From the NCBI GenBank assembly GCA_973895155.1, contig OZ316895.1, positions 24,681,538 through 24,745,537 on the forward strand: DNA of 64,000 bases, given 5' to 3'. Numbering within the stretch: the stretch's first letter is position 1; each line of letters opens with the position of its first letter. Below, one piece after another: positions 23,101-64,000 of the stretch. Source of the DNA: Marsupella aquatica. Lineage: Eukaryota > Plantae > Marchantiophyta. The notes under the pieces are model-generated. The model did no database searches, had not been told where the DNA came from, and saw nothing but the letters and a program-made list of their open reading frames with translations. The translations under genes were made by a program, and so were the position numbers.

Positions 23101-23589
23101 TTCTGCAGGTGGTGAGAAGAAGAACAAAAAGGCCAGCAAGGAGCTGTCGGGAGTGACAGGAGTACAGGCCACTCCTGAAATCCCAGCTGGTGAGGATAGT
23201 AACGAGGCCCACATATTCGTGAAAGGAAATTTCTTTATTCACCTTTTGGAGGCTTACGGTGATTTTATACAATGATTATATATATATATATATATAGTAT
23301 TACCAATGTCTTACGTAATCCAGAATTGCATTTTGAGCCTTTTCCTGCCATTTTGCAGATGGAGAGACGAAGAAGAAAAAGAAAAGAAGCAAGGAGGAAG
23401 CGGTGACTGTCCCTGCAGAAAATGGTGAGGCGCAAGCTAACACTCAGCTCACGAGTGTGTAAGGAAATGAAAATTGTGTTCGACACTGTTGGACGTGTCT
23501 TCTGGTGATAGCAACTGAAACCTTTTCTGCCTTGTTTTACAGGTGGTGAGAAAAAGAAGAAAAAGAAGGTTGCTGCAGAAGCAGCTTGA
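20107..23589 (+). CDS. NOP56: Nucleolar protein 56 (box C/D snoRNP core), 11 coding exons
   Basis: Exons 20107-20305, 20725-20939, 21171-21328, 21461-21648, 21799-22051, 22164-22312, 22577-22768, 22928-22999, 23109-23189, 23359-23424, 23543-23589. Motifs [74 protein letters not shown], and a Lys-rich tail. Confidence 0.97.
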
Positions 23590-27265: not shown

Positions 27266-27504
27266 ATTTGCATTTTTGAAATGCACATGCGCACTCATGA
27301 AGTGTCATCTTTTATCCTCTGAATGCTCTTCTGGTAAACTCAATATCGATATTGTTTATGGAATTAGCACATAAACTTACCAAAATGAATGATGGTCTCT
27401 CTATCCTCCCATGCCATACAACTCCCTAGAATAGCCCTTCAACTACTCCTGCTCTCCACTAGGGCTTGCATTTCATACCACACCATGGAATAGCCCTCCA
27501 GCTA

Positions 27505-28765: not shown

Positions 28766-30788
28766 TACTTGTGCTCAATCATCTCTAGGGCTCCCATACC
28801 AGCACACCATGGAATGGCCCTCCGGCTACTCCTGCTCTCCACTAAGCCTCCCATACCCACATACCTTGGAGTAGCCCTCCTGCCAGCATCTTTCCACCCA
28901 CAGCCACACATACTCCATCCCATAGCCCTATGACCTCTGTAGCTCGTTGCACTCCATCCCAACCACCATCAATTTGCAAGAGCAAACAAGCTTAATCAGG
29001 TGCCATGCATTTTTGCTCTTGGTGCAAATGAGTTTTTCCTTTCACAGGCAAAGAGCATATTTATAATTTTTACCCACTATCATACAACATTTTTTCCTGG
29101 GTTTTTCACCTCAAAGTGCAAAATACACAAAAATACCACGACCTTCATTTTTTAAAACCCTGCCACTCACTTATGCAAACAATTTGCAAAATTCTGTACA
29201 TAAAGGTGGTCATTTGCGTGGTTGCACAGTGTCCCCTAGCACTAGGGTACTCCAAAAGTACAGTGCCCCATCCGAAGGACAGTTCAACGGCCTCTTGTGG
29301 GCAGCACGTAACTCGGTCTGCTGGGCCCCCTCACAAACTTGGAGAGGCGAGAGTTTTGGGTCTTTCTTTGGTAGGAATTGTCTTTCTTACGAATCTTATT
29401 ATCTGTGCAGCTTCATTCAGGCTTGGGTGAGGAGCTTGTCTTCGTGAGGAAGGAAACATGAATTCACACCGATCAAGCTGTACATATTTCAATTTTTTTT
29501 GTTTCTCAATCAATCCTAACACATTTGAAATTATTCAGTTTTATTGATTATTTGGGGCGGACTCAATTAGCACTAAGGTAGTTTTCACTCCCCGGGCATA
29601 CATCAAATGCTGTATCTTATTTATAAATTTGCAACTACAAGCTAGAGTTGGGGCCTAGGCTTCTAGAGTGAAGTCTCTAGACCATAAGTCCATGACTCAT
29701 CATGTAAATAATGAGAAAATTGATGTCTATGATGTATGTCATGTCAAATGATAATATGATTACTTTTTGTTATGATTTCTATTTATATTAAAAACTGATC
29801 TCTATGGCCCCACCATATTATATGTGCATAAGTGTGATGTAAAATAGAAAAACTAGGGATGTGCATAGATAAAAATACTATGGTTTGTTATGTCTGTTTA
29901 TTAAAATGATGATATGTATGATAATTTTTTATTATTTAATTAATCTTCAAAATATATGAATAAGAAATATATTTTGGTAACATTTTTATTATACTCCCCG
30001 TTATTCACCTTCAAAGAACGAGTAGTCAGAGCTAGTATAATTCATTCTTGACCTATGCCAAGTTTTTTTTCCAATCTATCCACATTGTGTTTCAACTCTC
30101 TTGAGAGGTTCTGTTGTGTTGAGCGACTGACCTGTGAGTCTATGTTTTCGAGCTCTCCAACAAATTTGCAAATCAATAATGTATACTCTCGAACTCGACC
30201 AGAAATCAACCCAGAGTTTCATATATGCGCGTTTTATAAAACTCGGAGGATTCCCAAAACACGAACAAGATGGCTTCCTTACTAACATTGCATATGCAAA
30301 ACTGGATGGCACATGTCAAGCTGGGTTATAGTGACTGCACAATTATTTTGTTGATGAACCCAGTTGCGGACTCGCAATAATAAAAATTACCCCGTGAATG
30401 GCTCACCTACCCACCACAATCATTTGGGCACTGAAGGGCACTGAAGAGCCTCCACAACCACAAAATATGGTTAAGCTAGTATCATAGTGAGCTGTGCTCC
30501 AAAGCCTCCAAGGTTCAGGCGTTGATATCAGAGACTCTGGACCTCTACAACCCTTGAAAGAATGATAAGCCGAGTAAACGTGATCACTGAACTCACGCAC
30601 TTGAAGGAGGCTTACTTAAAGCTAACTATTACCGTGCAGGTTGGGAGAAATTTGAGGTTTCAACACGGCCATCTTATAAGCTATATCACATACAAGATTT
30701 CCCACGAATCGGCATCACTACTTTAGACGAGAGCAATTAACTTGACACCCACGCGCGTTATTTCATGCCAAGTTTGCGAGTTGACTTC

Positions 30789-38200: not shown

Positions 38201-38682
38201 TTCCTGGTATGTTGCTCACACCTGGCCAGACATGTTTTTGCAACCTATTTCAGCAGGAAACAAGTTTTCAGAAGCTGATTTCACCTCATATACATTTTTC
38301 CAGACTGTCAAGTAGAATTTAATTTTCTCCCAACTTCCCAAAACGTCAATTTTCTGCAGCACCAGATTTTTAAATTATTTGCATGAACTTGTTACTACTA
38401 CACTAGACCAGGGTTGCTTAGGGAGAGGATCCCAGCAAGGTTCCCAGGGCATCCAATACTTGTATACCATATTTTGGATCAGAGAACATTGACTGTTATT
38501 GGGAAGCATAAGATAAGAGAGTGATGGTTGGGGGCAAGGAGCACTTTATAGGAGCACCTTCAAGAATCTTGGACTCAAATCCCTTGCAGCACTTATTACG
38601 GTCAAAGAGCCATGGGAGTACATATGATACCTTTCTGCGAAGTGCACATCAAAAAGTAATACCATAAGGTGTACTGTGCTAT

Positions 38683-39965
38683 TAGGGCGTGTCAAAGCAC
38701 GGCCGTAACTCAGTTACGGCTTAGGACATAAATCACTCTTATGGCCTGGACATAACTCCTTATGGGGTACCTAGAAAGGTGCCGCGTAAGTCTCATACGT
38801 CCTAAAGTTGTATGTCCGTAGGGTGACGACCGTCCGTTTTTTGGAGAAGCCAGAACGCTGCCCTGTCACTAGTCACTGCAATGCCCGCCCACACTTGTGG
38901 CCCTTTGACTCGTTCCCCTGTGGTGTCGTTCGTTGTCTCCTACAAGGGCCAACAAGTAGCCCCTACAATGGTCTGAAAATGTGATTGTCATGCAAAGATT
39001 TGCTCCGTGAAGCTTCAAATAATGCTTCAATCTAATCAAACTAGCTCTCACAGAAAACAAATGAGAGAAGGAGAACGAGAGTGACCAAATGCGCTGATTA
39101 GCAGAGGCCTTGCAAGTAATAGAATATCAAGCTTGGCTCTGAGGAGCTCCATTCTTCGGTTTAGAGGTTTAGATTCACTTGGCGCTCTCTCTTGATCAAC
39201 ACAACGTCAAATTGTGGTCTGACTCCGATTACCTAGAGTCATCAGTCTCTTCTCCCAACACATTGTAACGTCCTCGATGAATAACAGTCTGATCAGATTT
39301 GGTTTTCCTCCAGCATTGCCTGCAAGTCCCTATGCTGCATAATTCTTTCGTTCATTCACCGGCCCACCTGGAAAATCATCGGTGAAATTGACGTGGGTTC
39401 ATTCGTTCCTCCTTCCGCAAAACTTTCACTGGCAGAGTGGCACATGCCACTATGCGTACTTATAGTTTACCACTGTGTGGCATTCTTCACTCGCCACTCG
39501 TGCAATTCACCACGGAGAATGGAACTCATTCTGGACTTCGAGCGGACTGCGAGCTTACTCCGTCCTAAGAATTGAGATTCAGCTGGTTCCTTTGATGAGC
39601 ACAAACGAACAGAATGATATGTAATTCAGGCTCTGAGCCAAGACGTTGTGGCACAGCAGAGGGACCGCAGGACAAATTCCTCCCAAGGTCCAAGTATTGG
39701 AGAAGAGAACTTGAATTGAATTTTGTAAAGCTGATGGAGCGGGGCAGAATGGCAGATTTTTCTTTAATGGTGAATGGTGGCCCCAGCAGCAAGTGGTGTC
39801 TGCATTTGTCACCAGCCATAACTCCAGTTTCTACCCCGTAAGGAGGTTTTACGGGAGGTGTCAAAACCTGTCGCTCTTGCCCATAACGATTCCCGTAACA
39901 TATTTTATGGATTTCTTAATGAGGGACACAAGGCAGGGCTTACGGCCATGCTTTGACACACCCTA
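38683..39965. mobile_element. hAT-like non-autonomous element, ~26-bp TIR
   Basis: TAGGGCGTGTCAAAGCACGGCCGTAA ... TTACGGCCATGCTTTGACACACCCTA. No clear TSD. A second right-end copy (tttgacacacccta) lies at 40875-40888. Confidence 0.7.
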
Positions 39966-39989
39966 GTGGCCACAGGTCCAATGGACTGT

Positions 39990-43598: not shown

Positions 43599-45229
43599 CC
43601 ACTTTCTGCATTCAGCACAAGGAATACGTGGTTTAAGGAATACAGTGTTCCCAATTCAAAAACTGACTAGGACGAAGGAAAGTAACGAGTACGTACCATT
43701 TCCTAATACTGCAAGCACAACCTCTCTACTTAGTTCTAGGAGGGAAAAACCGATGCAAACGCCAGATTTGTCCATTTCGCAACATTACCGAGAAAACTTA
43801 GGAGATATCGTAACAAAAGATCAATCCGGAAGATTCAAAAACAGTTTTCACCCAGAAATCCAGTGAATCGGTTCAGAACAAGAGGGACTAAACATAGAGC
43901 AGTTTGGTGGAAGTCGCCGAAGGACTCGAGTGACAAAACAGTGTCGCACGCCCAGTTGAATTGCAGATTTATTTAAATCAAGAAAATCTCGCAACAGAAA
44001 TCAACCGATGCTTTGCAAGCTAACGTGAATGTGCAAAGAGGCATGAAGTAAGGGAACATTCCCTAGTTGGACGGAAAAAGAGAAGATTGTACTCCTGAGT
44101 ACAAAAGTACCTCTCGGTCCAGTTACGTTTCTAATAAGTACGCGACCAAGCATCTTGCTAGAGTGACATTTCAACAGACACGGCCGCTAATGCTAACACA
44201 TGAGCTACTCCTCTACTGTGGAAGGATTCAGAAGGCATCAACAGAAGTGGTAGATGACTTTCGCCCAACTTGCAAACCAGAGACGAGGAGGAAGCAGCAG
44301 CAAACCTTGACGCCGCAGAGAGACGCATGGTCAGGGCGCCACACAAGGCAGTCATCGCCGTGAAGTACTCCGCGTATGAAGAACCTCCTTGCCGAATCGT
44401 GGAAGAAATTTCCTAATTGGCAATCTGCAAACAACTACTGTAGAGCTGGATCCCAACAATCAAGCAACATTGTTGAGCTTCAGGTCTGTCCTCGAGAAAT
44501 CCTCGCGGGAAGCAGTACCTCCAAAACCCTCGATAAACCTTGTTGGACAGATCGATCGGGACAAGGTTCCAAAGTTGGAGGTATTTGCTTGATCTACCCT
44601 CAAAATTAAACTTGTTACTTGATCTACCCCTTGAGGTATATGAACGGTCCAGATCTGAGATCGAAAGGTACATCAATAATCCAGATTTGGGAAAAGTATC
44701 GAGGGCGTTGATTTAGCAAACTTTTTTCAGAAGGGGGTCTACTAAGCATATCCTCCACGAAGTTGAGCTCTGGATGTTTGAAACCAAGTTTGCTAGCTAA
44801 CTGGTGTTATTTAGGGTAATTTCCTCCAATTAGAAAAATGTACGGTGATTTTTTTCAGTCGCACTGGTGTTATTCAGTCTATTTTCCTCCTATGAAATAC
44901 AACTACAAGGAAATTTTTCAGTTGCATCAGGATTTTGTTTTGGGTTGTAACATGCTACAACTACCCGGCTCTGGGATGCACTCTCAAAGGAGGAGGTACC
45001 CATCTTCATCGTCTAAAGTGGGAGACTGAGAAAGTTCCTGAGCTCTTCCCAGATGCAACTTTTGTTTTTTGGCGGTTTGAAGTTTGAAATATATTAAGGA
45101 CTTACTAGAGGGGGATGTTAAATACACCCCACCTTCCCTATCTTCACCCTAATTTAATAAACCCACCCCAAACTGACCTACCCAGGTCATTACCCATTTC
45201 TCACTTCCAAAAGTTTTCAATCAACAAAT

Positions 45230-45795
45230 TTTGACTTTCAATTTCTCCCATGACATGGGGCTGAATTGGATTTGATAGAAGCAATTTGGAAAGATATTTG
45301 CAAGAAGTCTAACATTGTCAACTTTCATTACAAACTGAGAGAGCAACGAAGTTTGAAAGATTAGCTTGTCATTCACTGTACACTTCTCTCATTTGTGAAA
45401 GTTTATGAATATCAACTTTTTACTTTCAACTTCTCCCTTGATATATATAGCAACTTGGAAAGATCTCTCCAATAAGTTTGATATAGTGAACTTTCACCAC
45501 AAATTGAGAGAGCTATGAATTTTCAAATACTACCTATCTGTGACTGTACATCTTCCAAAAGTTTTGGATCAGCAATATGAGCTGTTCCAATTCCCCTTTG
45601 ATGTGCAGCCCAATGGGCTGTTCTTGGGTTCAAAGCACCTTGGAAGAATTTTACAACCAGTCTAAAATTGTGAGCTTTCACTACAAATTGAGACTGAGAG
45701 CTATGAATTCCCAAAGATTGCATTGTCACTCTCTGTACATTCTTCCTACCTCCAAAAGTTTTTTCTCAGCAAATTCAGACTTTCAATTTCTCTCT
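45230..45795. repeat. Degenerate ~175-bp tandem repeat (3 copies) at the insertion site of the large MULE
   Basis: ctttca..acaaa.tgagagagc.a.gaa.t...aa.a...ctgtaca recurs at ~45320, ~45490 and ~45673. Confidence 0.65.
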
Positions 45796-46505
45796 TGCAC
45801 GGGTATGATAGCCATGACAGAAAACAGAAAACAGAAAACCTGTTACCAGGAAATTTTTTGCTGTTAACAGTCAAATATAACTGTTACCAGTAAGCGATTC
45901 TCTGTTACCAGTTTTGCATCAACCATAGCCCTTTGGTCCGAATGAAAAACTACGCTAATCACAAAAATTTTCTGAAGTGAATTAGGTTTAAAACAAACAA
46001 TTATTGTGTGCCATCCGATGGATGAAGAGTACTAGCAATCCTCCCTTGCAACAACATTTTGATCTGGAAGATAACTGAACACGGTATGGGGACTATACTC
46101 AATGAAACATTCATTCAAATATCACTATTCGTCCAAGCTAAAAAGTGAACCTTAGGGTGGGACCCACCACAGAACAAGTGAAGAGTAGTGTCCAAATGAA
46201 CTCAATCAAAATGAGTTCACTTAAATGGACCGAGTACCGTGACAAACAAATGACAAAACACCTCCTAACGATTTATTTCAGAATAATTGAATAAACGTGG
46301 CTTGAAAGATAAAACATAATGATATCAACTTACACATTTTAAATAAAACATAGTGTAATGCTTACACTACACGCGTACATAATAAAAGCAGCGCCCGGCG
46401 CTAACCAAAAAATACTGAATAAAACAAGTAACATATCCGTTGGGTAAAGACAAAATAGTGACTATCCGTTATATTGAACGACCTATGCGAAAGTTTCAGC
46501 CCCTA

Positions 46506-49500
46506 TTATAAGCCATTCAAGTTCTGCCTCTCCAAGACAAGCCTGACTTCGCCCACAGTCAAAATTGGTTGGCTACAAAGAGTCGACTCCTCAACCTCAA
46601 GTTTGAAAACATTTATGTACACCCAGTATAGATGTTTACAAGGCATGTACGACTTGCCACGCAAATGTCGTAGGAAGAAGTCCTCACAAGAGCAAGCAGG
46701 GAAGATACAGATTTGCACGAAGTACGTGCTTGGTGATCAAAGGTTCTCATGGGTTCGAATTGAAATTGCTTTCCAAAAGCATTTCCAGTCCGAACATTCC
46801 ATTCCCCATCCAAACTCATCTCTTCTTGTCGTGCAAACTCCATTCGCTTAGTGTGACCCACAGTGAGATTAGACCGAGGTCTTGAGTTCCTCCCATTCCG
46901 ACTACCCAGTCGGACATTTGGCTCCAAAAACCTTATTGTTTCTGGGAACACGTTCACATTTATCCTGAGGTCAAACAAAGATGGCGCAGATCGACTCGAT
47001 CCTGTTGTTCGGGCTAAGACAAGTCCTTGCTCTTCGAGGAACGTGATTTCAGAAGGAGATAGGTTTGTACCCTTCAGAACAGGCAAAATTTCAGGAAGAG
47101 GAGGAAGCTGATGAACACCACGACGCGGACGACTCTTATAACAGGTTTGGTTTGGGCAGAACCAAATCATTTTGGAGATCGGTTCACCCCTGAAGAGATG
47201 ATGGCCCTTCACGACAATTCCAACAACACCGTCAAACAAATGGAAGCCAACCTTCTTGATACGATTTCGACAGTCATCGCGATCAGAACTCCCATTGAGT
47301 GTCCCGTTACACTAGGGACCTGTTCCATACTTGGACGTCCGTCGCAGCTACCACTGCCCCAGAGGGACATCCTTCTCGAGCACAATCGTGCGTGAAAGTG
47401 GATTCTGAAGTGAGGCTGGTGCACTGAGCGGAGGTTTTGTGGATCTTGTTGTACGGGTTGTTTGAGGGGTATTGTCCAATGAATCAGTATCACCATCTGA
47501 TGTGTCCATACCAGAGAGATTCACCACTCTTGTCACAGGATCATAGAATTTGAGGGAATGGAGGCAAAGTCAGTTCTGTTTAGGTTTTTCCTTTTCAAAC
47601 CATGAGTATTTGGTGTGGTTATGAGAACGGTGTCATGCCGATGGGAGTCTTGTGGAGAGACAGTCCCTTTTGCGTGTCCCTTTCTCTTCATTGACTTGGT
47701 CACGATATCTCCGTTGAGGGGAGTACTTCTTTCCAAATCGAAGTCCGCCGCGTTGGAAAGAGGCATGTTGGTCGCATCTTCAAATAACCTCGGCAAACCT
47801 GCTTGATCGGCGGAACGGAACGCCAATTCCCATATAGTCGATCCCTTTCCTCTGTTCAACCCTTTTCGATATGCATTGTATCCCGCAACTTGAGACAGGG
47901 CTCGGTTTTGGTCCACTTTGCATGCTTCAAAAAGATCAACTTTTTTCTTTGTAGCCCAGGCTTTCATAGACGCATGCCTTGATTCTGACCCTGTACAGTT
48001 TGGAATCAAGGCACCTTCTTCTGAGCTTTTGCTCTGCCATAGTCCGAATGCAATAATCAGTACTAGCATTGTATTACCAGCGCCCGGCGCTGGCTCCGAC
48101 AAGTATTTATAACATACGTGAAATACAATTTAGATTATGATTCTGGAACTTTATGGACATGTTGGACTCAAATACGAGCAAATCATACCAACGCCTGGCG
48201 CTAATATAAAGTTGATGGAAATGAAAGACAAGAGAGGAGATGGATGTCATACCACTCGAATAAAATTGCCCCACTGGCGCCATCAAACAACCCACTAGGA
48301 TATCCAGCTTTGTAGCATCATGAGCTTTCCAGGGACACAGTTTCCTGATTGCCACCAAACCACAATCTCTCGGGACATGCGATACGCTACCACAAACGTT
48401 GGAGTGTTTCTTAGTTTCTCCCAAAGTCTCCGATGTTTCGATTGACATTCTTCGAGTACTCCTTCCTTGGAATGCGATGGAAAGATTGATAAAAGTGAAA
48501 TGCATCAGAGCGCTCCCTCTCTGGGTCTGGGTGTCCACCAAAAAAAACATTTCGCACAAGATTCCGTCCAGCTTGTGCATTGTCCACCATAAACCCTTGG
48601 ATGACAACCTCCTGTAATCCATTCTCCTTGCAAACCTCAATTATAACTCTCCAAGCCTTTTCGAAAGACTCAGTGTCTTCACCTTTCAACTTGCATGTGA
48701 AAACTGTACAAAGTGCACGGAAGTTATGGTCGTAGACATGCGCGCTAAAAGTAAACCAATCGGTTGTGATACGCTGCATCACATCAAAACTGACCCAGGC
48801 TCCTTCGAGTCTTCCACCAGGTTGCATCTGTCTCAAAAGATCCACACCGGAACCGTGACCCTTCGTGGTCATTTTAAAGATGTGAGGCCTGTCATCTTGA
48901 CATCCCTGACCCAGGAGCAAATATCTCTGGAGAAATGACAGGTTAATCTTCTTCTGCATTTGCGAGAGAAAATCAAGTTCACCCCGACCCTTTTGGTCTA
49001 TCCTAACGCTCCGACAAAGAGATGCAAACTTCTGGGGAGTGGAAAGTACCATCACAGACTTCCATATTTCAGTTTCTTCGATATCAACCATGTCGTCAAC
49101 ATGTTCGCAGAGAGCTTTCACTATGGACCCTGTAGCAGAATTCAAGATCCCAGCTGGTTTTGCCAGAGGATTGGCTTCATGATTTTTTTAATTAAATCCT
49201 CAGCCATCTTCTCCGCACTCCTACAGAAGGTTTTTCTACCTGGATGATTATGCTCACCTATATGAATCGCCAGGCGGGACATATGACTACATGTTTCCAC
49301 ATCAAGTAATACTTGCGGGTACATATAGAACAAACGGGCAGGGCAGTACTTGACACAAAAAGGAATCTGATCACAATAATGACACACAACACCGCCCTTT
49401 TCGATAAAAGATCCGACACCATACTGACCACTAAGCTTTGGAGTACCCTGCCATGCCTTAGCATTTGCCTTCTTCTTCCTTTGGAAGTACTCGCAGGACT

Positions 49501-50236
49501 TGTTCCAACATTCAATGAATCCCGTACAGGTAACCTTACCGAATTGCCAAAGTTTTTTCGGCTGAACGTTCGCAGTAGTTGGAAATATGTGTGTCCAAAT
49601 GTAGCAATCTTTGGCACGGTCCATGTCCCTAAGCCTAGAGCCTTTAGAGAGCATCTTGTCAATGGGTGGCAATTCAAACACGACGTTCCTGTTGTACTTA
49701 GTTGGCAGACAGGAGACTTGCTCATGTCTAAAATCACCCGTTGATATGAACCTCGATAACTCGCTATGACCAATGGATTTGAGTAACGTATCCATTGCAC
49801 TCCGTCGATACACGACCTCCAACTGGTTAGAGCTTCCTGGAGTCTCACCTTTAACGATAGCATGTTGTGGGACTTTCATTTTCAACGTAGGACTTGGAGT
49901 GTGATCCCCATCTTCACTAGAAGAAATCTCGACAACATCAAATGGAACTTGGGGGACACTGGACGGTCCTTCATGTTGTCTTACTCGAAGTGAGTACAAA
50001 ATCCCCGCGTATAGATGCCAAAACCGTTCACCATCATCCACATTGAATGTTGCTGCATCTTCGATGTCATCACTGGTTTCGAGCTCTCGAACAATGGCCT
50101 CAATATCATTCATCCTCAAATCAAATCTCCCGCAAAGGTATCTCTCTCGGACCTGCTTGTACGTGTCTTCCATAGGGACGGGGATGGTCACAATATCTCC
50201 AGTCCCGAATCGGGATAGAACGATGGACCGAGACAT
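46506..50236 (-). pseudogene. MULE transposase: GCM-like zinc domain, DDE core, C-terminal SWIM finger; disrupted
   Basis: N-terminal C..C.N..C...C..C...CPAR...H.GEHNHP. DDE core VSFDVM, FMVDNAQAG, DAFHF, then PNCTGSESRH after intron 48252-48034. SWIM finger CSCEDF...PCKHLYWVY. Frameshifts (~49185 and others) and TGG->TAG / CGA->TGA-type stops. Confidence 0.88.
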
Positions 50237-51199
50237 TGCAATCGAAAACAAATAACGAGGGCTGTAATGTTTCGAGGAAGAAAAGTCTATGGTAATATGG
50301 AGCTTATATCAGTCGAACATGGGAACTTCACGTTAACAGATCCGTTTGTATAAGACATAAAACATAGTCGACATAGGATCTGTTGGCGACATAAATGATT
50401 TTTGTCGTTTTTCCCCGATAAGTCCGGATCTCAGACGCATACATAATGCCAAAAAAGACACCACAAAAATCTTTAACAGACTCTAAGATATTGTATAGTT
50501 GGAACAATTTGAGTAGCGCCTGGCGCTAACTAAAATGTCTCCAACATAATATGCCCCAAATCTCGATATTTCATACTAGCCCCTGGCGCTAGTATACGAA
50601 AAACCCCTCCAGATATCCATCAATACTATGAAATAATTGGATTGAAATGATCAATGAAAATGTGAATTCTTTTAAAACTATGGATGAAAAATACTCGTTA
50701 TCACTAGCGCCGGGCGCTAGTATAAGATGCAAGTAATGTTTCCCAAAAACCATTAAAACAATAGACATTTCTTTAAATATGGGGTTGTTTTGATGAAATT
50801 TATATATTCGAGGCACCATTTAAGACCTATTCTATAGCTGTTGTTTTTACTAGCGCCTGGCGTTGCCATGACAATCATCCAAATTATCTACTTCAAGGGA
50901 TGTTGTTTATAATAGCGCCCGGCCCTAGTATTCCAAGTGAGGGAGGAAAACGGTCATAACGGTAACATTTAACGGTAACTTTTGAGTTCCGTGTGTGTTA
51001 CGCTTCTTCTACCGCTTGATTTAGCTAATTAAGTTCTCAGCATACATACATTGGAATCCGCCAAACTTACGAGCTTCTCGCTTTAATCGAAGAGTTCCGC
51101 TGAACTCCACCTCCTTCTAGAATATATTACACATTGAGAGTTGATTAGAGTTCCATAATTTCATTGTACGATAGTTCGTACGCTTCTGGAAGGAAGACG

Positions 51200-54100
51200 A
51201 TGGAGGTATTCTCCTGTCACGCGATTGACATGGGTCTTAACACCAAAGACGTCACTATGGGTGCCAAAACCATCTCCTTGTACCTGAGGATCACGAAGGG
51301 ATGCTGTGAAGGCCGGTAAACACCAATTTATGCCCTTAACACCAGAATATCATAACAAGACTCCGTCACACATCACCCAAGCTCAATCCCTAAGAACCAA
51401 GGTTGGGAATCAGATCCGAGCTCATGATAGTTCTGGTGAGAAGGAGTCTTCATATCGGGCCCGTACACACAGGGCCTAGCGCTACGGTGCGCATAGGTCT
51501 ATACGTATGCTTACTGTCATAGGTATGTTTCTATTCCGCCGCCGGAATGTACCCATAAACCAGTGACTCTTGACTGATTCCCGGCTTAGGGACTTCTAAG
51601 CCATTGCCCCACCACTCTGCCATTCCACTCTCAGCAATCAGAGCTATGACAGTCCTCACCCAGCCCGCTTCAATGCACCCTGTACACCTCTCAGTGGCGC
51701 TGCTAGTCCCATCATACACTTAGATTGCCTCACACACACACACATCCATGAGAGAAATGAGGCCTGAGAGGAAAACTCAATTAGATTCAACGATGTGCAC
51801 AATAGTTCACTGAGAACACTTGATCCGAACAATAGGCCCGAAGGCTGTCTACTCCAGATTGCAGCGTGCTTGCCCCGCAAGCCCCATGCTTGCCATGCAA
51901 GCTCAATCCTGAACCTAAGCCCGGCTCACTCCAGATTGCGACTGCATATTGGACTCAAACCAATCCCGTACTTGCCTTGCAAACTCAATCCTGAACTCAA
52001 CCTCCTTCATTGCACTTCATTCTTGGGGGCACATACAGATCTCACACCTCCAATTCAGAACGTCAAGTTACGCATACATAGTTGACTCGACTTCAAAGCT
52101 GGTACCAGGCCTAACGGCGATCTACCCCAGACTGCAATGAGGCCCGGCCTCACGCTTGCCCTGCAAGCTCCGCTCTGGCCATAGATCCCTTAGTGCTCTC
52201 CACCAGACAAAGGCCGGGACTCCCCATGGATCACGTAGCCTTGCCAGACTGAACAGTAAATGCTCCTCCTGCTGCCCCTCAATCAGTGTCTCAGCCTCCC
52301 TAATGTGCTCACCACAAATCAAATTGACATCCTCCCCACAGTTTACAATCACCAATACATCACCTATCACCAAGGCTCTGTATCGAGAGAAAAGAACCCA
52401 GTTGTGCTACTCACTAGAAAGAGCCACAATCCAGCTCGCAAACCTAGCAACCCGTTGCTGTGAAGCTTGGCTGATTACTCCCTGAGTAATAGCACAACCA
52501 AGCTCTCCCCCAACACGCAGCGTCCAAGTCCAGCCTTGCTTGCACAGAGCTCCTCCCTGCTGCTCAGTCTAAGTGAGATCACACAACTGAAGTCCCCCCC
52601 CCATCTCTACCGGGGGGCTGCTCTATATACTCTCATACTGAGCCCAAATGGCTGGGTACTACGCTGCTGGAGCCCCATCCCAGCCCTAACAGAGTCGCCA
52701 CTATCTCTAACTACTGAACCCTAACTCGCAGCTTTATTTCTATCTCGAATTGGCTATGTACTTCGGATTTGGCCCTCCTCCATGGTTTTCGCGAGCTTAC
52801 GCCTCCTCTCCCGATTTCTGTATTCAACCATTTGCTGCGTGGATAGCAGCGTTGGAAGCGGCTTGAGCTCCTCTTTCCAACGAGGTCAATTATAGCCCAT
52901 TTGGTCAAATACACAGAGAGTTATGCCCCCGCAACCGAGAGGGGGTACTCACTGCTGCGCTAACCCGAGTTACATAGCTAACCCGAGTTCGGCTAACCTA
53001 GCTATCCTATCTAACCCGAGTAGAGCTAACCCGTGGTCTCGGGTTAGGCCGCTACCCGCTATCCGCTAACCTAGCCTAAGCTGAGCCCGAACCCGAGCTT
53101 ACCTATGCTAACCTGAGCCCGAGTTTAGGCTAACCCGAGTTCAATCTAATCCGAACCTAGGTTAAGCCTAAGCTGAAGCTGTGCTGACCTAAGCTAAGCT
53201 GAAGCCGTGCTCACCTGAGCTAAGCTGAAGCCGTGCTCACATAAGCTAAGCCGTGGTCGAGCTTGGGTTAACCCGAAACTGAAGCCGAATCCGCTAATTC
53301 CGGCCATAAGTTAACCCGTCACACTAATCAGGCCGTATCTCTCTTAATACACCTCCGTTTCCCGAGTGTTTTATATCGATTTTACTCGCCTTGACCAGAT
53401 CTTTCCAATGCTCTTTACAGATCCGAATTTGGTGACATATTGAAAGAGATATGGTCGTCGACCACCCGCGATATAGTTTTTATTTCCCTACTCTTAACGC
53501 CATGATTGCCCTTATTCTTGCCATCTTGCTAATTGTTATGTAATATCAATAGCTACTCCTTGCATATAGCAACCTACTTAATCAGATTACAAAATAAGGA
53601 CCATGTCATTGGCGTCACATCTCCTCTTCATCCAGAGGGTATAGTGTTGTTCCTGACCAAGAGCGAGCTTATTTTGAATCCTCGTAGTCTTCGTTTACTG
53701 GTTCAGTTTATACACGTCGTGTAACTCGTTCCACAAAGTTGTTGCCTCCTACTTCTGTTAGCGCTGTTTTGGTTCCTAAATCTCTGGGTAGAAAGATGGA
53801 GAACCTCGACACGATTGCGATCCAAGATGTTTCGGACTGCGCACTCGCAGAGACTGATCTCATCTCAAAACATGTCATGTGTTTTGGAAAGGATTCTCGT
53901 GGATTTGACAAGGAGCCGCCTTGAATCCCTCTATGCCGATTGGTTCATATGGAGGTGGTTCGTACTTTGCAGAAAGATAGCTCTTCCATCGAGAAGCTAA
54001 AAGACTCATTTCGCAGTATGGGTTACAATTCATCCATAGGAATGCGTTTCTATGTGCAGCCAACGGATGAGAATGGAATTGTTCTGACCTGTACCCAGGA

Positions 54101-57100
54101 AATTCGTGAGTCATGGGATCCAATTTGGCAATTGGAGAACGAGAAGTTTGAGGCTGAATGCAAGGCTGATCCAGATTTTCTCGTGTTGAAGGATAAGATG
54201 TTCTCTGTCTTCGATGGAAATCACAGGCTGTACTCATGGACGCTTGTTACCGAGGAGAACCCTGACAATCCAAAATACCATCCTTGAGTGCTCTGCACAA
54301 TATTTAAGGGAGACAAGGGATCTCTTATTGAAATTGAGGCAGCTATGCACACCGTGAATCAGTAAGTTCTCATTCTTTTCCGGTACCTTCTTTGAATCTT
54401 GCGAGTGTTCTATTTAAGAGCGCTTGGCGCTGGTTATAGATAAATTGTACTTTGACTCTAACTCGCTGCATCTCTTCGTGTAGGCTTGGCCAAGCAGTTG
54501 TTGAGCCATCTTGGATTCTCGATGCAGATAGAATCAAACTAATTATGGCGCATGACCTTGAGTATTACAGTAAACTGATTGACCCGTCTAATTTCAAGAA
54601 GTTTGAGAGCATTCGGCTAAAGACTCGGAAGGGGTCATGGTATACAAAGAAGATGCCACAGGAAGCTCTTGTTTACATTCTATGTGAGAATAAGATAAAG
54701 TCCTATTCTCACCAATTCAAGCTTGACATGGAGGCAGCTGAGGCTCAAGGGAGTCCCTGGTCGGTGGACAAGATTTCCAAACGCCATGCGGCCATGATGA
54801 AGGACGCAACCAAAGACTGGGCAGTGAAGTCATCAAAAATTACGCCCTTGTTAAGTCCTGAATTTGAAGATTTTCTTAGTACATGTGCAAAAATGTATGC
54901 TGTCACAGAGAGAAACAAGAGAGAGAAGAAGCCTGACGACGTCGTATGTACAATGGACCGCGCCCGATTGTTCACTGCTGTTTCTGCCCTAGACCCAAAG
55001 TTGCGGAGCATCCTACTTATGGCACATTGCAATCCTGAGCTGCGGAGACAGTTTTTCCACCCGGCAAGTGTTAACGACGACCCAGTCAAACAATGGTGTC
55101 ATACTTGGATCACTTGGAATAGTGTAGAGGGAATTGTTGTCGGCATGTTACATTCATGTGTGCGTGAAGTAGAGCAAACTATGCCCGCCACTAGATTGGA
55201 AGAGTGGAATTGTGGTTCGTTTGATGATCTTGTTCAGTTTGTTACAAATGAATTCAAGAGATATGGTGATTCTATGAAGAGTAAGTTCTTTCACACTATG
55301 TGGCCTTCAAAGTATCCAGACAAAGAAGACTATACCCAGAAAAACCAGAAGCAGGCTAAAAGGTATCTTTACAGGTTCTACATGCACATGGAGGTAACCA
55401 AACCTGATTACTTCTGGGCATATCCTGCAGCTTTCATGAAGTGGATTACAATAAGTGAGGATGATGCCATAGCTGATTTGTACTCCATGTACCCAGCAGA
55501 GGGCATATTTCCTCCAAGACCTATGACAGAATGGGAGAGAACTCACTGCCCCTAGTATCTAGATACAGATAGATGGGATTCTCCTTTTGATCAAAGGGAG
55601 AAAGATGCATTCCATAAGCTTTCAAAGTCCCACATACCAGCAAAAATTGTGTCCGACATGAAGCAGAGCCTGCTAGACAATGTAGACAAGTCTGCCACTG
55701 ACTTGCAAAGTATCTGTGAAACGACTATTGTTCATGTGGACCGAAGTCGCAAACCTCGAGCGAAAGCAAAAGCGGAGTTAGCAGAAACAAGCGAGTCAAC
55801 AAAATCTGGGAGGAAAAGTGAGTATAGTGTTCCCTAGTATGGCCAGCGCCTGGCGCTGGCTTGAATTATCATGCGAATTCACATTTCTTTCTACATTCTT
55901 AGGCCTTTGTTGTAACCTAAGTGATTTGCATTTGGTTAGCGCCTGGCGCTAGCTTGTTTGAATACTCAGGATTTACTTGTTCTAACTAGGACCTATTGGT
56001 AATTTAGGAGGAAGTCTAATACTGCGGGAACAAGAGATACTAAAGTGGATGCTACACCTGAAGTTTCTGAGGCAAACACCGGAGCTTGATCGGACCCCAT
56101 TACTCCTGTCGACAAGGGGAAGGTAATAGTTCCGGTTGACGCCACAAGTACCAGGAAGAAACGAAAGAGAGCTATCAAAGGTGGACCTTCTTCAAGGGAG
56201 AGTGTTGCAGCATCTGGTGTCCAACGTGAAGTTGGAAACTTCAAAACTAGAGTGTCTTGTCATGCCATGGTTGAGACAAGCATATCCGAATTTTTGACTC
56301 GACTTTCAACAAGGGGGAAAAACCTGAATGGGTTAGTAATGTGGAGAAGTGGGGGAAGGATCTCGTTAAGTCGGGATATAAAGAGAAGGGTGTTGTGCGG
56401 GGAGGAAAAGAAAGATCATTTGGAGTGGATGCGGGTTTCATTTACCTACCAACCGGGTTCAAACCAACGATCATAGATAAGAAGGTTCCTAAATGGAACA
56501 CTCCAGATCAGTCCATGGCTAGATCTTTTTTCAAGTCCATGGATCCATTTCTATCAGATGATGGATTCCTTGCAATTCTACACAATGGGGAGTATGATCC
56601 CATGTCTCAAGTCATTGCTGCCTGTCAGGAATCGAGAAAATTTCAGTGCATATGCACGCATAATGTTGTAATGTCTGTCCCGATGTACGCGGCAAAGACA
56701 GACCGTCAGGTAATCATGTACTCTTAACTATGTTGCATTTTGAAGTATAACTTGTTTAACCTGGAGTTGCCAACTAACACTTGGGATTGCTTTCCGCAGA
56801 TGTTTACCCTCAGGCTGGACATATTTGGTTGAATTAATGGGAAATGCAAAATTCCCAAAGACCCTAAATTCCGTCCACTCTCCATCAGTGAGGACCCCTC
56901 GGTCACCAATTTGATCGGAGTCCCTTCTCTCAAATCCGATCCATTCCCGCAAATGGCGTTTTCTGGAAATGCTCGCCTGTCTGTTGGGTTTATGCAATCT
57001 GTCATTGAGCTTGTCACCCGACCTCATCATATTTTTATGGATTGGACCGCAGGGGCTGGAAGCTCCTTCATTGCTAGAGACTTCTCCAGGAGGTTTGTGC

Positions 57101-57788
57101 TCGGGATAGAACATAGAAAAGAATTTATTGAAACCACTTCGAAGATTTTCATGGATTTGTTGTCTCCCAAAGAGATTGCACTTTTACCTCCACCTATGCC
57201 TATTGCCGACAGAAAGAAGCGAGATAAGCTTTGGTCGGTACTCAATTTTGATTCTGATGATGAGTCCAGTGAAGGTGGAGATGGAGAGGAACAAGGTACA
57301 GGGGACTCGGAGGAGGAAAAGGAAGAACCTTGTCGATCTCCTGATGAAACCGATAGTGATGACTCTTCCGAGTAATGTTCATAAACTCGTAAGCTTCTTT
57401 CTCCATTCCCGTCAATTTATAACATTGATGTGTTGTTTTGGAGAAAGGCACCTAACTTCCTGGATTTTGTTTGATCAGGTCAGAGTGGAATGCAAGGAGA
57501 CGTTTGAAACTGCGAAGGAGGGTTGCTAGACACAACATAGAAACACCAGAAAAACCTTTTGTTCTTCCCTCCTATGTAGAGAAAGCCGCAAGGAAAACCG
57601 AGAGCACAAGGACGCTTTGCTGGGAAAACAAAGGTCTTCGGTTACGAAGGGGTGTTGGCAGGAAGTTCATTAAACATCCTTATGTTGATGACTTCTCCCA
57701 CAGCCAGTACGTAGATGATGAGGTTGTGTCCACGGACAAATCCGAGAGTACAGATTCTGGTTCCGAATCAGAATCTGTAGAATTGTGA
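51200..57788 (+). pseudogene. Element-borne spliced gene: ParB/Srx-like N-terminal domain plus C-terminal beta-class (N4C/N6A) DNA methyltransferase-like domain; disrupted
   Basis: The ATG at 51200 continues in frame across the solo LTR into 53625. Motifs IPLCRL...VFDGNHRL (54213); VDAGFIYLPTG...PKWN (56443); VIELVTRPHHIFMDWTAGAGSSFIA...RFVLGIE (57040). Introns ~54362-54483, ~55818-56007 (phase unresolved), 56710-56799, 57372-57478. Stops at 53685, 53922, 54285, 55553, 56087, 56830. Confidence 0.75.
51215..53619. mobile_element. 2,405-bp solo LTR with 5-bp TSD TCTCC, inserted in exon 1 of the ParB-MTase gene
   Basis: TGTCACGC...GCGTCACA termini. TCTCC at 51210-51214 and 53620-53624. No gag/pol coding. 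Internal gctaacccgag repeats. Confidence 0.9.
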
Positions 57789-59456
57789 CATGTATTGAGG
57801 AATTTAGGGAGTAATTTTTTACTAGCGCTTGGCGCTATTGTCTTCCCCCGAACACAAGCCCCGGGCACTATATTCGAATAGTGAGCCAAGGGGCGCTCTA
57901 TTCGAATATAGCGCCCAGGGCGTTGTGTTTGAGTTTGAAGTCAATTATTTTATTTTTTGGACTTGTGGCGTTGTGTTCGAATTGTGGCGTTGTGTTCAAA
58001 TTTAAGGTAATGTGCTTGAATTTTGGCTTTGTGAGATGCATGTAGGGTGTAAGTAGGAATGATAGACATAGAAGTTATGTGTATTAGAGAGGAGTGTGTT
58101 CAAGTTTAGGTTTTTTGACTTCCCAACAATATTTGCTCAGGTCAAAGGATGTGTAGCTAAATAATTGAACCACTGAAATTACACAAGGGGAGAAATCAAA
58201 TTTCAATAGTAAACAAAACCTGACAAACCATACGTACCAAGTGTACTATTATCATTTAGTAAAACATATTCGTCCACTTTTCACAGTTGTTTGGTTTACT
58301 GTGGCCAATTTGCTCGTTTCTATTATTTAATCTTTTATCATGCAGCCTGGAATGTTTGTGAGACTGCTTTGTTTCTATTGGAGTGCCTTGATCTTGAGGG
58401 CAATGGAAAATTGAAAATAGAGAAAGTGAGTCATCAGACCTAATTATGCACATAGGCACTATGGGTTTCTTTGACAAGACGTCGTGGCGTCAGTCAGAGG
58501 TTGATGTGAAAGTCCGTTGAAAGTTCACAAGCACAAGAATATATTGATACTTTCGGATTGCTGCTTAATATTTTGGAAAGAGCACACACTTCTCTGAGAA
58601 TGAAGTATTTTGAAATTAGCTTACATTTCTCAAAGGACGATGGATTTCGCAAGTTAAAAGTGCGGATGAGTCGGACGATTTTAAGTAACGTATTGTAGTT
58701 GCAACCCAGTTACCTTTCTCCTATAGTCACTTGTGCATTTTCAAACACAAAGTCAATTTCGAACACAACGCCCGGGCGCTGTGTTAATATGGCGCTGTGT
58801 TTGAGTGAAAACATTTTTTTTGCCTAAAGTCCCTGTTTTGACCATATTCAAACACAACGCCCGGGCGCTGTGTTCGGGGGAAGACAATAGTACCAACTTG
58901 TATTCAAATCCTCTCATTGAGTCCTTATAAATTAATGCCTCATTCCTTGTGTTTTTTACAAGCGCCAGACGCACGCCAAATGGTGATTCATAAAGTGAAT
59001 ATTTCCGGCTCTTATTTGTTTAACATGGCCGTTTGGTCTTTGTCGTGTCCTACCAACGGTCATCAGAATGAGACAAATAGTAGTCAATACATAGTATAAT
59101 ATACGTTTGGGATACCAACGGCCATTTCATTTAGGTCCGTTATTTTTCCAAAGAAACCCACATCGGCTGTATTCAGATGACATTTTTGGATCTCTAGGAT
59201 GACATTCGGATCTCTTGTTGACAACTTTTTTGCACGACATTTTTGGATCTCTTGTTGATGGCATCTCTCTCAGACAACATTTTAGGATCTCTTTTTGACG
59301 ATAATTTTCAAGGACGACACTTGTCACGGACGACAAGTTTTTGGACAGGCGACTGTTTTGAGACCGACACCCGTTTTCGGCCCCTTTGCGGACTTTTTGC
59401 GTACATTTTTTGCATTTTTTAGAGGGGAAGTTGCCACTAGATTGGATTTATTAAAC

Positions 59457-60250
59457 ATGGAGAGAAACGGTAAGCTCATGGATTGGGAGGCAGCGTTCCT
59501 CCCTTCTCGTGTGCGTCCGGAAGAGAGCCATTTCAGTTCTTTTGAGTCACGGATGGATACTGAAGAGACTGAAACCTCTACTTTCCTAAACCGTCACGCT
59601 CTACCGTATGATGAGACTATTAGTCCTGGAGAAAAGAACATCCCGTGGATCGTCGATTCTCCACCGCTCCCATTCGCAAGCAGGTTCTCGTCTCATGAGG
59701 TTGTTCCTGTTGATGGTGTACTGCCAATCGATAGGAGAGTTCAAGAAATGTTTGGGCGAGTTGACTTTAAGGACAGTAACATTCCCAATGAAACTTATAC
59801 GAGGGCAGTGCGTCGGGGTCCTTTTGAGAGATACATTCGATTGCGTGGTCTTGGATTTAAGAAAAATTGGAGGAGAGAAGCGGCTGGAGTGGAGGATGAT
59901 TGCAACTCTGAAAGCTAGATGCAATCACTTATTTGTTGTTCCTCCCGTTTTTCACAAAGAACGGCATCGCATTGTTCAATTTGGTGATCACTTTAAGCTA
60001 GCACCGAGCGTTGCTTAAGCTCTTTCGATGTTTCAGGATGGAGTCACCCTCGGCTTAGTTTTTAGGGTTTTCCCCGGATGTTGTCTTCAGGAATTCCATA
60101 GTTTTTCCTGCAGTTGTTGGCTGGCGCCCAGCGCTGCTTTTGTTTTACTGGAAATCCTCAGCCGGGGTCGACCGTGGCTTCTGTATATCAGATTTCTAGG
60201 CCTGCAGGTTTTAACTTATATGTGCGTTTTTTGGACCTGCGCCGAACGCG
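59457..60250 (+). pseudogene. Third ORF of the large MULE, unknown function, frameshifted
   Basis: ATG 59457 opens 153 codons (MERNGKLMDWEAAFLP...). After an apparent frameshift at the A-run near 59862, a protein-like frame continues (KIGGEKRLEWRMIATLKARCNHLFVVPP...*ALSMFQDG...GCCLQEFHSFSCSCW). 3' end uncertain. Confidence 0.5.
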
Positions 60251-63200
60251 TTATGTACTTTGCGATTATATATGGCAGTTTTATTTTTCCCCTACGCATT
60301 TTGACATATATTGGTCTCGGATTTTGTTTATCTCAATTGTTAGACGATTTTATTTGTTGTAAAATACATGATTCCGTCTAGTCCAATTTCCTTTCACGCG
60401 AATTTGATCGTCTTAATTTCTATACCAATAGTTTGAAACACATATTTCGTCCACTTTTTTCATGATCATTGTTCACTGCTACCCAAACATTGTTCATTGG
60501 TAACAGTTTCTTTTTGCTGATAATAGTAACTGTTTGCTGTTACTGTTATTTGTTTGCTGTCGTTTGTAAATTCCCCTCTTGCACCCTAAACCCAACACTC
60601 CTAACAATGGAGACAACACACATAATAGATTTGAGGGACGTCTGTCTCCTGCACCTTCTCTATGTCATGGATCGTCTATCAAACACTCTCCCCCTTCAGT
60701 GACATAATATACAGTTTCTAAAGATTCGCAACTAGTTTCCTGCTAAAGACTACACAGTGTTACTATGCTTGAGAGACAGTTGGCTCGTCTTGATGCTTTC
60801 CACTGGATAATTTGAGAGCCAACGAGAGAAAAAGTTGTCCAGATTGACAGCACATTTCAAGATTTGTTTGTGTAACGTTACAATGTTGGGTCAAAATGGT
60901 ACTCCGTACACATATAAGCAAAGTCTATCTACCCATGAATCCTATGCCTTATTCTCTCACAAGTAAAAAACTAAGAGCTTACGTCCTTGTGATTGGAACC
61001 CAGTAAAGTATTGAGCTTCTTCCAACCCTTAGTGATAACTAAGAGCTGAGATTTTCATTCAGAGGAATCCACCTACTCTTAAATCCTCACTTATTCATCT
61101 CTCCAATCTTCATCTTCAAGCTGTTAAATTTTGTGCCCTCCCCTTAAACCACAACTTGCCCTATATAAGGGGAAGTGTCCAAGATCTCCCGCTTTTTCCA
61201 CATTTCAATCACTGTTCTCCTCTGCATGCCAATTTGGTCCACAATTTCAGGAAAAAACTCCTTTTTATGGTAACTATGGGTAACCATAAAAGTAGGTAAC
61301 TACGGGTATTGGTCTTACGGGTACCATACGGTTGTGGTTTAAGTTATCTACAGTAAGTTTGAAAGCTTAGTTACAATCCCTGATATGATTTTCTTTGTCA
61401 TCTTCAATGGACAGGCACATCCAATTTAAATGTAGAGAGATATTTCTGAGTGGTACTATTTACAGATCGGTGATTTTATCTCCAACATTTTTGTGGCTCA
61501 GGTGTCCAACAAGCATGACAACAACATTCGGGGTAAATATGTTGAGTGCATGTGATAATGCGGACGTATTTGAAGGTTGCTTCAACAAAATGAACAACAG
61601 CACCCGTCCAAAAACGAGACTCCAACCTGCCTCGTAAGCTTCTCCCTCACATGCATCATATCCTCCGGTTCTTTAATGTTTCTTCTGCACAAGGACGTCT
61701 GGTCCTTATGATGAGCTTTCTTGGTGATGAGGCACATCGCGTTATTATGGATCAGGTAGCTTTCCTTTTTGTATGTAAGTTTATCTTGGAGGCTACTAGA
61801 GAGCAACTGCTTGACCCCACCAAACAGTTGCTCGCTTGCTATGGTGATGCCAAATGTGCACGAATAAGAGTGACCCTAATCAAACCTGGTGATTTCTCTA
61901 AAAATCCTGTTACTAGACGGAGTTGGAATCTCAATGACAACCCGACTGCTGAGTCTGCCAAAAGCAAAGGCATTTACGTTAATCAAACACCCCAACGTGG
62001 GAGAGGACATGGGAATTACACTTGGCGTCCCAACACTCCTAACAATGGAGAAATCACACATAATTGATTCTAGGGACGTCCGTCTCCTGCACCTTCTCTA
62101 TGTCCTAGATTGTCTATCGGACGCTCTCCACTTCAGTGACATAATATACAATTTTTTGAAGACTCCTGATATATTAGCATCTGTTGCACATTGATCAAGA
62201 AATGTTGAAACTAAGTCAGAACTTCCATATAGAATGTTTCTTTACGTTGTTAGCAGTAGAGTACCCATTTTTACATCAATAGGTTGTGTTCCTTTGACAT
62301 CGACGGTTTTATCTATATGGATTGTTGTAATCTCCTGTCCATGCATCTTCTAAAGTTATGCTGTCAATTCATCTTTACATCAATCTAGTAGGTTGCTTAC
62401 CCACTGAATTCTCAATTCTACTGTTTTCCTTATAAGTCCCAATAAGTAAAAACTTTGGCATAATTTCTTGATTTCCGCTTGTTGCTATCCTGGTTGCTAT
62501 ATATCTAAGGATCCATTGTTGCTTTCATTTAACTTAACTAGTATTGTATGCTGGTCCAGATGACTAACAGCTTACTATATTGCCTAATGGTTGACGCACA
62601 TCACCCAAAAAAATGATCGAGCCTCACTCCACTTTATCCATCTCTTATACACCAGCCGAGCTTTTGAATGGCTACCCCTTCACAATATCTTTTCTGATTT
62701 TTTCACCATGCTTCACAACAAAGACCTGACCCCTACATTAGACTCAGTCTGTTTTGGATGGAAATATTTGGAATCTATTGCTACATTATGCTATCATCCA
62801 ACACAAGTTTTTTGTTACTTCAACATCGACACACTATTATCTACTGAAACCTTACATATGCGGATGCCACTCTAAAACGGTTCATAGAATTCCTTGATCC
62901 ACTAACAAGATCCAAAACCCAGCTACCCGAGAACGCAGACTATAGCCATGTATGCACCACCGACCTTCGGATCATTCACGACAAATTCCTATGAACTGCT
63001 CTCTCATTTGGTCTCAATCACATTCTACTTCAACCCACCAAGTTTAACAAAGTTTTCCAGGGAATTCTTCGCGGATGGATACTATTATGCTCATTTCTCA
63101 ACTTAGAAGACTCCCTCACTGACAAAGGAACACGAGTACTCCTTGACATTTGCTACAACTACTGGATGGCAGGGGCTCAATGCAACACCGGTCGACATCG

Positions 63201-63694: not shown

Positions 63695-64000
63695 CAGTGT
63701 TTTCCATCAGTCCACCTGATATTAGTCGCCACATCATCTCAAAGAGGCCGCCAAGTTGAGGCGGCCAAAAATTTGGTGTCCGTATCGTACGGATATCACA
63801 TCTCGGCGAGACCCGTCGAGATAGTCTGATGTCCGTATGATACGGACACCAAATTTTGTCAAATTTTTTTGGGGGATTTTTTTGGGGGGGGGGGGATTTT
63901 TCAAAAAAAAATTAATTAATTAATTATTTTATTTTTTTGTTCTTACGCCAATCTCGGCGAGGTCAGCTGAGATTGAGTCAATCTCAGCTGCCCCAACTAA
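63695..64000. mobile_element. Probable left end of a hAT-like element with an internal hairpin, truncated by the window edge
   Basis: Starts CAGTGTTTT, has GC-rich subterminal repeats (atctcggcgag) and a 90-nt foldback at 63768-63857. The other end is not visible. Confidence 0.45.

Follow-up and report, generated by a model that had tools for sequence, protein, structure and literature searches.

Introduction

Accessory genes that join a ParB-like domain to a DNA-modifying domain have been described in algal transposons, and binding of such proteins to their own element is already in print as a hypothesis for brown and red algae. In Sola1-1_Ec32 of Ectocarpus, an accessory gene of 1104 aa opposite the transposase combines a ParB-like domain with an N4C/N6A methyltransferase, and binding and modification of its own transposon have been proposed (PMC12477816, which points to Iyer 2011 for similar proteins). 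The Plavaka gene PAG3 of Bostrychia couples ParB to a 2OG oxygenase, with internal inverted repeats as proposed binding sites, and Chondrus is reported to carry homologous accessory genes in its giant Plavaka elements and in Mutator elements (bioRxiv 10.1101/2025.02.11.637652). Adenine methylases fused to ParB-HTH are also reported from chlorophytes and chytrids (PMC4738411). Here, we analyse 64,000 nt of the liverwort Marsupella aquatica (assembly GCA_973895155.1, contig OZ316895.1, positions 24,681,538–24,745,537 of the forward strand; hereafter 'the window'), which contain a Mutator-like DNA transposon with a ParB-like/methyltransferase-like accessory gene and, dispersed through its non-coding DNA, a 19-bp palindrome that the element's own ParB-like protein probably binds.

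Three further systems inform the comparison. KorB of plasmid RK2 loads via its central helix-turn-helix (HTH) at twelve dispersed 13-bp odd palindromes, TTTAGC(G/C)GCTAAA, and then slides, and VirB of Shigella is a ParB-family anti-silencer in which the same fold relieves silencing (PMC13768133, PMC11790492). Targets of the Arabidopsis VANC proteins, encoded by VANDAL elements, lie in introns, intergenic DNA and terminal non-coding regions (PMC5735166). N4CMT of bdelloids and MpDN4MT1 of Marchantia are host genes with an SPPY motif and demonstrated N4-methylcytosine (4mC) activity (PMC8885841; bioRxiv 10.1101/2021.02.12.428880, the latter for 4mC in Marchantia).

The liverwort element keeps the pairing that marks the algal proteins, a ParB-like domain and a DNA-modifying-type domain encoded within a DNA transposon. 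Likened by published description, its accessory protein resembles that of Sola1-1_Ec32 in size, in its two domains and in lying on the strand opposite the transposase, whereas Sola1-1_Ec32 belongs to the Sola superfamily in a brown alga, and the available part of PMC12477816 describes no target site. PAG3 is likewise a ParB-fused accessory gene with in-element inverted repeats as proposed sites, but it belongs to EnSpm-type elements of red algae, carries an oxygenase effector, and its repeats form tandem arrays beside the gene, in contrast to the sites dispersed through introns and promoter here. With VANDAL and VANC the element shares a Mutator-like character, poor terminal inverted repeats (TIRs), accessory genes and a short motif enriched in non-coding regions; VANC motifs, by contrast, are 8–9-bp, non-palindromic and tandem, and anti-silencing is proven for VANC and proposed here. 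KorB-OB and VirB offer a ParB-family N-domain with a central DNA-binding domain (predicted here), and KorB-OB also offers twelve dispersed odd-length palindromes conserved between relatives. The outcomes, long-range repression by KorB and anti-silencing by VirB, are likened to the role proposed below, although both proteins are bacterial, have another site sequence and no methyltransferase domain, and the box here is DGNHR. N4CMT and MpDN4MT1 are eukaryotic examples, the second from a liverwort, of the permuted N6/N4-type methyltransferase fold, but they have no ParB domain; here the gene is transposon-borne and the corresponding motif is DLPTG/YLPTG.

No land-plant Mutator/ParB case was found in the literature searched, outside which most subscription papers fell. 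What is new is the land-plant Mutator-like setting, the dispersed 19-bp candidate site and a first test of its conservation. The element carries the ParB-fused architecture into seed-free land plants, and the proposal becomes directly testable through a defined candidate site for which there is an initial indication of conservation.

A palindrome dispersed through the non-coding DNA of one element

The element and its parts are as follows (strand '.' where none is assigned).

45792–45800, +: left 9-bp target-site duplication (TSD), CTCTTGCAC, bounding the element
45801–60575,.: Mutator-like DNA transposon, 14775 bp, ends GGG..CCC, degenerate TIRs
60576–60584, +: right 9-bp TSD, CTCTTGCAC, bounding the element
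46513–50248, −: transposase gene, with a Cys/His-rich N-domain, a D..D..DxxH..E core, a C-terminal SWIM-like motif (by eye) and an intron at ~48034–48252
51215–53619,.: nested solo long terminal repeat (LTR), TG..CA, TSD TCTCC, in the promoter region, no real palindrome inside
53798–57788, +: accessory gene, divergent from the transposase, with a ParB-like N-domain (DGNHR), a helical middle and an N6/N4-methyltransferase-like C-domain
54362–54483, 55818–56007, 56710–56799 and 57372–57478, +: introns of the accessory gene (five exons)
57838–58887,.: nested insertion of 1050 bp resembling a miniature inverted-repeat transposable element (MITE), TA duplicated at CTAG, TIR TTGTCTTCCCCCGAACAC, four variant palindromes
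59457–59918, +: open reading frame 3 (ORF3), 153 aa, no family found

Palindromic sites were defined by a 13-bp core, AGCGCC-N-GGCGCT, with a free centre, and called at zero or one mismatch.

46390–46402,.: palindrome 1, perfect; 3' of the transposase stop
48079–48091,.: palindrome 2, perfect; transposase intron
48190–48202,.: palindrome 3, one mismatch; transposase intron
50515–50926,.: cluster of five palindromes (50515, 50578, 50706, 50852, 50914); divergent promoter region, 270–680 bp upstream of the transposase ATG
54419–54431,.: palindrome 9, one mismatch; accessory gene intron 1
55845–55950,.: palindromes 10 and 11 (55845, 55938); accessory gene intron 2
57824–57836,.: palindrome 12; directly 3' of the accessory gene, right flank interrupted by the nested insertion
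58961–60135,.: weak sites 58961, 60000 and 60123; 58961 and 60123 with two mismatches

Twelve sites were called, six perfect and six with a single mismatch, all within 46390–57836; each had been listed at the same coordinates in a sequence-only reading of this DNA, which had described a 13-bp palindrome with a C or T at its centre. When up to two mismatches were allowed, the window yielded 28 strand-matches to AGCGCCYGGCGCT, where 0.73 were expected; 0/100 shuffles reached that count. The same motif came first when k-mers from the non-coding DNA of the element were ranked de novo. Once the two nested inserts are removed the element measures 11313 bp, 34% of it non-coding, and all 12 sites fall in that fraction (p = 2.4e-6). 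Leave-one-out position weight matrix (PWM) scores of the 12 sites ranged from 18.5 to 31.5, while the best scores elsewhere were 5.6 outside the element, 7.4 in the LTR and 2.9 in exons, in agreement with the earlier observation that the main exons, LTR and outside DNA are free of the motif. The LTR score belongs to a match at 51471 that was dismissed as chance level. No comparable site was seen in the 49 kb of window outside the element, host-gene introns included; the inside-versus-outside comparison covers this window. Three of the element's five introns carry a site, and those at 56710–56799 and 57372–57478 are empty. The two weaker copies of the sequence-only reading, 58961 and 60123, were recovered at two mismatches, with an additional weak site at 60000. 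Site 60123 mirrors site 46390, flanks included (43 nt, 74%), and the two sit 440–590 bp from the element's ends.

The centre proved to be free rather than C/T (T in eight sites, C in three, G in one), and the 13-bp core is part of a longer site. All 24 half-sites have a purine at position −3, 14 of them have a C at −2 and 23 a pyrimidine at −1; the outer flanks are AT-rich. Because this half-site consensus extends beyond AGCGCC, the site is best described as a 19-bp dyad, RCYAGCGCC-N-GGCGCTRGY. Arm-to-arm covariation beyond the consensus was absent (at position −1, 8/12 agree against 5.8 expected, p = 0.11), so that the 'extended stems' previously noted reflect arms that agree no more than the consensus predicts; selection for hairpins was rejected on this ground. 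Sequences flanking the sites are unrelated (best 18/30, null 95th percentile 18), and spread of the sites by tandem duplication was rejected for that reason. Symmetric 9-bp half-sites, a free centre, arms without covariation and unrelated flanks together fit a site for a protein dimer.

Four further copies in the sequence-only reading (57857, 57910, 58767 and 58856), taken there for spacer sites of the element, turned out to be 14/15-bp forms in the arms of the nested 1050-bp insertion, with the AGCGCC half-site and a 2–3-bp centre. Joining the two flanks of that insertion rebuilds the consensus right arm of site 57824, and the insertion-free joint, 57835 to 58888, is present in three contigs of run X3.

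Variation among copies

Copies were compared via contigs of four public runs from three coded organisms (A, B and C). These contigs (6827, 12113, 407 and 1863) cover 30/30 bins of the element with many divergent variants, which identifies it as a multi-copy family. A subfamily swaps 50721–50906 for 40 other bases (joint 50720 to 50907), between sites 50706 and 50914, so the number of sites differs among copies.

Intron 2 of the accessory gene (55818–56007) was picked in advance and compared across the four runs, with 40 of 41 variant rows shown. It contains 38 variable positions, of which one falls in the 26 positions of the two motifs and 37 in the 164 positions elsewhere (Fisher p = 0.017; p = 0.007 when splice-proximal bases are left out). 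An X6 contig that spans the whole intron at ~86% identity differs at 0/26 motif positions and 26/164 others (p = 0.016), and a contig of organism C (X5 record 18) retains the two sites at the window's own spacing of 93 bp, with the centre of the first site flipped and 25 bp of the spacer between them unaligned. Conservation relative to flanking intron, suggested in the earlier reading as a check, is therefore seen for the two intron 2 sites (p = 0.017, subject to the caveats gathered below), which are two of the 12.

Each site carries two or three CpG, and transitions were found at 0/24 core CpGs though this copy is dead. Observed/expected (o/e) CpG is 0.90 in the element's non-coding DNA and 0.55–0.62 in outside DNA, a difference confounded by age; CpG depletion as a proxy for protection was dropped for this confounding and because there is no gradient around the sites.

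The accessory protein

The accessory gene carries premature stops in this copy. Its middle exon has 82 relatives at E 0.001 or better; ten were looked up and seven named, six from Riccia sorocarpa and one from Calypogeia fissa, with accessions such as KAL3677308.1 and CAM6082146.1, and one homologue (P0085) is full length at 1207 aa. Structure was modelled on a Riccia homologue, P0026, with a 53-row alignment (mean pLDDT 71.6). Residues 146–304 of the model resemble the N-domains of Noc, ParB and KorB (Z 6.9–7.7, rmsd ~3), PadC included (Z 6.7–7.7), and ParB-type N-domains fill all top ten rows, above sulfiredoxin/SbnI (Z 3.7–5.6). In a search of 48,161 chains, residues ~301–520 matched DNA-binding domains at Z 4.3–5.1, among them ParB 6s6h (Z 5.1), KorB 1r71 (Z 4.7, 107/114 aligned), SopB 3mky (Z 4.4) and Spo0J 1vz0 (Z 4.4). 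The succession of N-domain and DNA-binding-like region is the ParB domain order, and we regard a ParB-type DNA-binding region after the N-domain in the model as a weak lead rather than a result. Solved structures searched by sequence yielded no significant match, the middle matched no Pfam family, and Foldseek returned no PDB or viral-library match at E 0.001 or better, with ParB/Srx entries at the top of its weak PDB list. Pfam found no VANC-like domain in ORF3 or in the middle of the accessory gene, a search in which VANC itself was not compared directly.

The C-domain resembles N6_N4_Mtase (PF01555 at E 9e-6 to 5e-5 in homologues, below the cut-off; Atlas 0.95) and has a permuted fold, with S-adenosylmethionine (SAM)-binding motif I near the C-terminus (DFAGGWG / DWTAGAG).

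A proposed ParB-like operator and its alternatives

The palindrome is most simply read as the operator of the ParB-like protein, since it is long, symmetric and free-centred, and is confined to the element that encodes that protein. Two features of ParB/parS systems are seen: a ParB/Srx N-fold in the homologue model (Z below 8) and, in the same replicon, a palindromic site, a 19-bp dyad in 12 copies whose cognate status we infer. The suggestion in the sequence-only reading that the motifs are cis-acting sites for an element-encoded protein survives as the best account, in the form of predicted binding; its support lies in their presence in one element only, a variability below that of the remaining intron 2 sequence, the symmetric half-site and the ParB-type fold of the homologue. 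By analogy, the accessory protein would load at each palindrome as a dimer, with one half-site per subunit, and might then slide or spread along the element, nucleotide-gated as in KorB and VirB. Spreading of this kind could keep the divergent promoter free of host silencing, a VANC-like outcome. Predicted binding together with such an anti-silencing, self-activating role is conceivable, at somewhat short of an even chance. The fullest version of the proposal, which we consider on the unlikely side, is that a bacterial-style parS/ParB system operates in chromatin on a land-plant transposon: a clamp gated by nucleotide would load at the dispersed 19-bp palindromes and slide over the 11-kb element, a methyltransferase-fold domain would write, read or block a DNA mark, the family would escape silencing specifically, and the MITE-like insertion would be a hitchhiker or sister-family descendant. 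If true, it would represent a second, independently evolved anti-silencing system and a ParB clamp acting on eukaryotic chromatin, and offer a possible sequence-targeted epigenome tool.

Several observations weigh against binding by the ParB-like protein and the role proposed for it. The sites lack the tandem-repeat arrangement of VANC targets, and ORF3 and the transposase N-domain stay candidate binders. All Z scores lie below 8, possibly a common arrangement according to the tool, the ParB-family DNA-binding-domain matches tie with unrelated helical proteins, and the modelled homologue is 19–22% identical to the window's segments. Conservation data come from one of five introns and two of 12 sites, in copies related to one another; many short contigs break off within the second motif, so variants can be hidden there; listed substitutions explain 26/30 differences of the X6 contig and 8/14 of X5 record 18; and of the 28 13-bp windows of intron 2 that are free of variants, nine lie away from the motifs. 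CpG o/e shows no gradient by distance from the sites (0.78, 0.69, 0.65, 0.71, 0.90). Motif IV of the C-domain is non-canonical, reading DLPTG, DMPSG or DMPTG in all four homologues that extend across it, and YLPTG in the window's own gene, where beta-class N4C/N6A methyltransferases have a catalytic (S/D/N)PP(Y/F/W). As enzymes producing 4mC or N6-methyladenine (6mA) have SPPY/DPPY at this position (PMC8885841), catalysis is doubtful, and rather than writing a mark the methyltransferase-like domain more likely reads or blocks modified bases.

The same protein might instead bind the sites as a KorB-like autorepressor, or write a 4mC/6mA self-mark at their CCNGG core; we think either rather unlikely. 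Five of the 12 sites are clustered upstream of the transposase ATG and the repressor KorB is among the closest folds, which would suit repression, while the N6_N4_Mtase-like C-domain with its retained SAM-binding motif I, and a CCNGG core in 10/12 sites, would suit a self-mark, CCSGG being a known 4mC target (PMC8885841). A methyltransferase target has little need of 19 bp, and the departure from SPPY/DPPY in the window and in every homologue covering motif IV speaks against a writer; with CpG flat around the sites as well, the methylation-target idea of the sequence-only reading comes out weak. It is also unlikely that the palindromes are bound by the transposase, through its Cys/His-rich N-domain, or by ORF3, activating cognate copies or synapsing the ends in the manner of AtMu1 transposase or Spm TnpA. 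AtMu1 transposase does bind and hypomethylate its own family (bioRxiv 10.64898/2026.08.24.746577), and the mirrored pair 46390 and 60123 near the two ends would be well placed, but AtMu1 binds TIRs, whereas here the termini carry a different repeat without the palindrome, leaving that one for the transposase, and the majority of sites lie kilobases inside the element.

A neutral or structural origin appears improbable; on that view the sites would be small mobile palindromes, footprints of insertions or hairpins left in place wherever they are harmless. Outside non-coding DNA, GC-rich palindromes may not be tolerated, one site is adjoined by a MITE-like insert whose palindromes are similar, and the spacer between promoter sites is replaced in some copies at the 50720 to 50907 joint; set against this, the motifs are less variable than the rest of intron 2, they show no duplicated flanks, shared TSD or arm covariation, and none occurs in the LTR or outside DNA, which should be equally tolerant. 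We give no more credence to the idea that the element recruits a host transcription factor to these sites. E2F-type host sites do contain GC-rich cores, GGCGC among them, and transposons can amplify host sites, but the E2F consensus requires a T-run that the half-site lacks, a strict 19-bp free-centre dyad exceeds the typical length of a plant site, and no full site is found in 49 kb outside the element, the host gene among it.

Transposase, termini and nested insertions

Alignment of the two ends shows a degenerate TIR of ~110 bp in which ACAG/CTGTTACCA is abundant and the GC palindrome absent, and the transposase ends in a SWIM-like CSC..CKH (by eye), in keeping with the long or degenerate TIRs and the SWIM finger of Mutator-like elements (MULEs). 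The transposase gene is disrupted in this copy by frameshifts and stops; alignment A5 shows conserved D135, D202 and DxxH (D228-H231) followed by ESxH, which would fit the MULE pattern. The 9-bp TSD lies within the 8–11-bp range of the Mutator superfamily (MULE features per PMC6446971). A transposase relative in the liverwort Calypogeia fissa matches at 62% over half of the query. Pfam found no MULE match to the transposase, ORF3 had no Pfam family and no usable Atlas match, and no domain was named at the Pfam cut-off in the window's 13 ORF pieces. The structure model of the transposase was unusable (pLDDT 37), and the 'GCM-like' label given to a transposase domain in the earlier reading is unconfirmed. 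Loci related to the element were absent from the metagenome, genome and viral contigs searched, and metagenome contigs contained 0 copies of a 21-bp extended form of the motif.

Both nested inserts were delimited by joints in run contigs. Coverage of the solo LTR (51215–53619) is far deeper than that of the element in all four runs, and it contains internal 26-bp and 20-bp repeats. The MITE-like element landed at the CTAG that borders site 57824, and a G at 58768 in other copies completes one of its palindromes. Its stretch 58262–58300 resembles, by eye, the large element's right subterminal region at 60435–60480 (AAACATATT..CGTCCACTTTT), for which blastn gave no match, and it may be a hitchhiker or a derivative of a sister family. 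In DNA contigs of X1 and of X3, position 56705 is followed, after two letters, by 56798, at a depth of ~2200 in each run; as these contigs skip intron 3 (56710–56799, palindrome-free), some genomic copies are without it.

Other features of the window

Degenerate short repeats (GACA..TTTTTGGATCTC) lie upstream of ORF3 at 59180–59360, and arrays of similar GACATCTTTT occur at 17510–17804, with an inverted partner at 18955–18992. The element is inserted in an array of diverged 160–200-bp repeats (45198–45797). An intron-rich host gene at ~20100–23590, which from its appearance we presume to be NOP56-like, has introns without a full palindrome. Three more inverted-repeat pairs, spaced ~1.0–1.3 kb apart (26116–27266, 27503–28767 and 38678–39970), are probably other MITE-like elements. 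At 63768–63857, a 31-nt inverted repeat is 94% complementary across a spacing of 28 nt.

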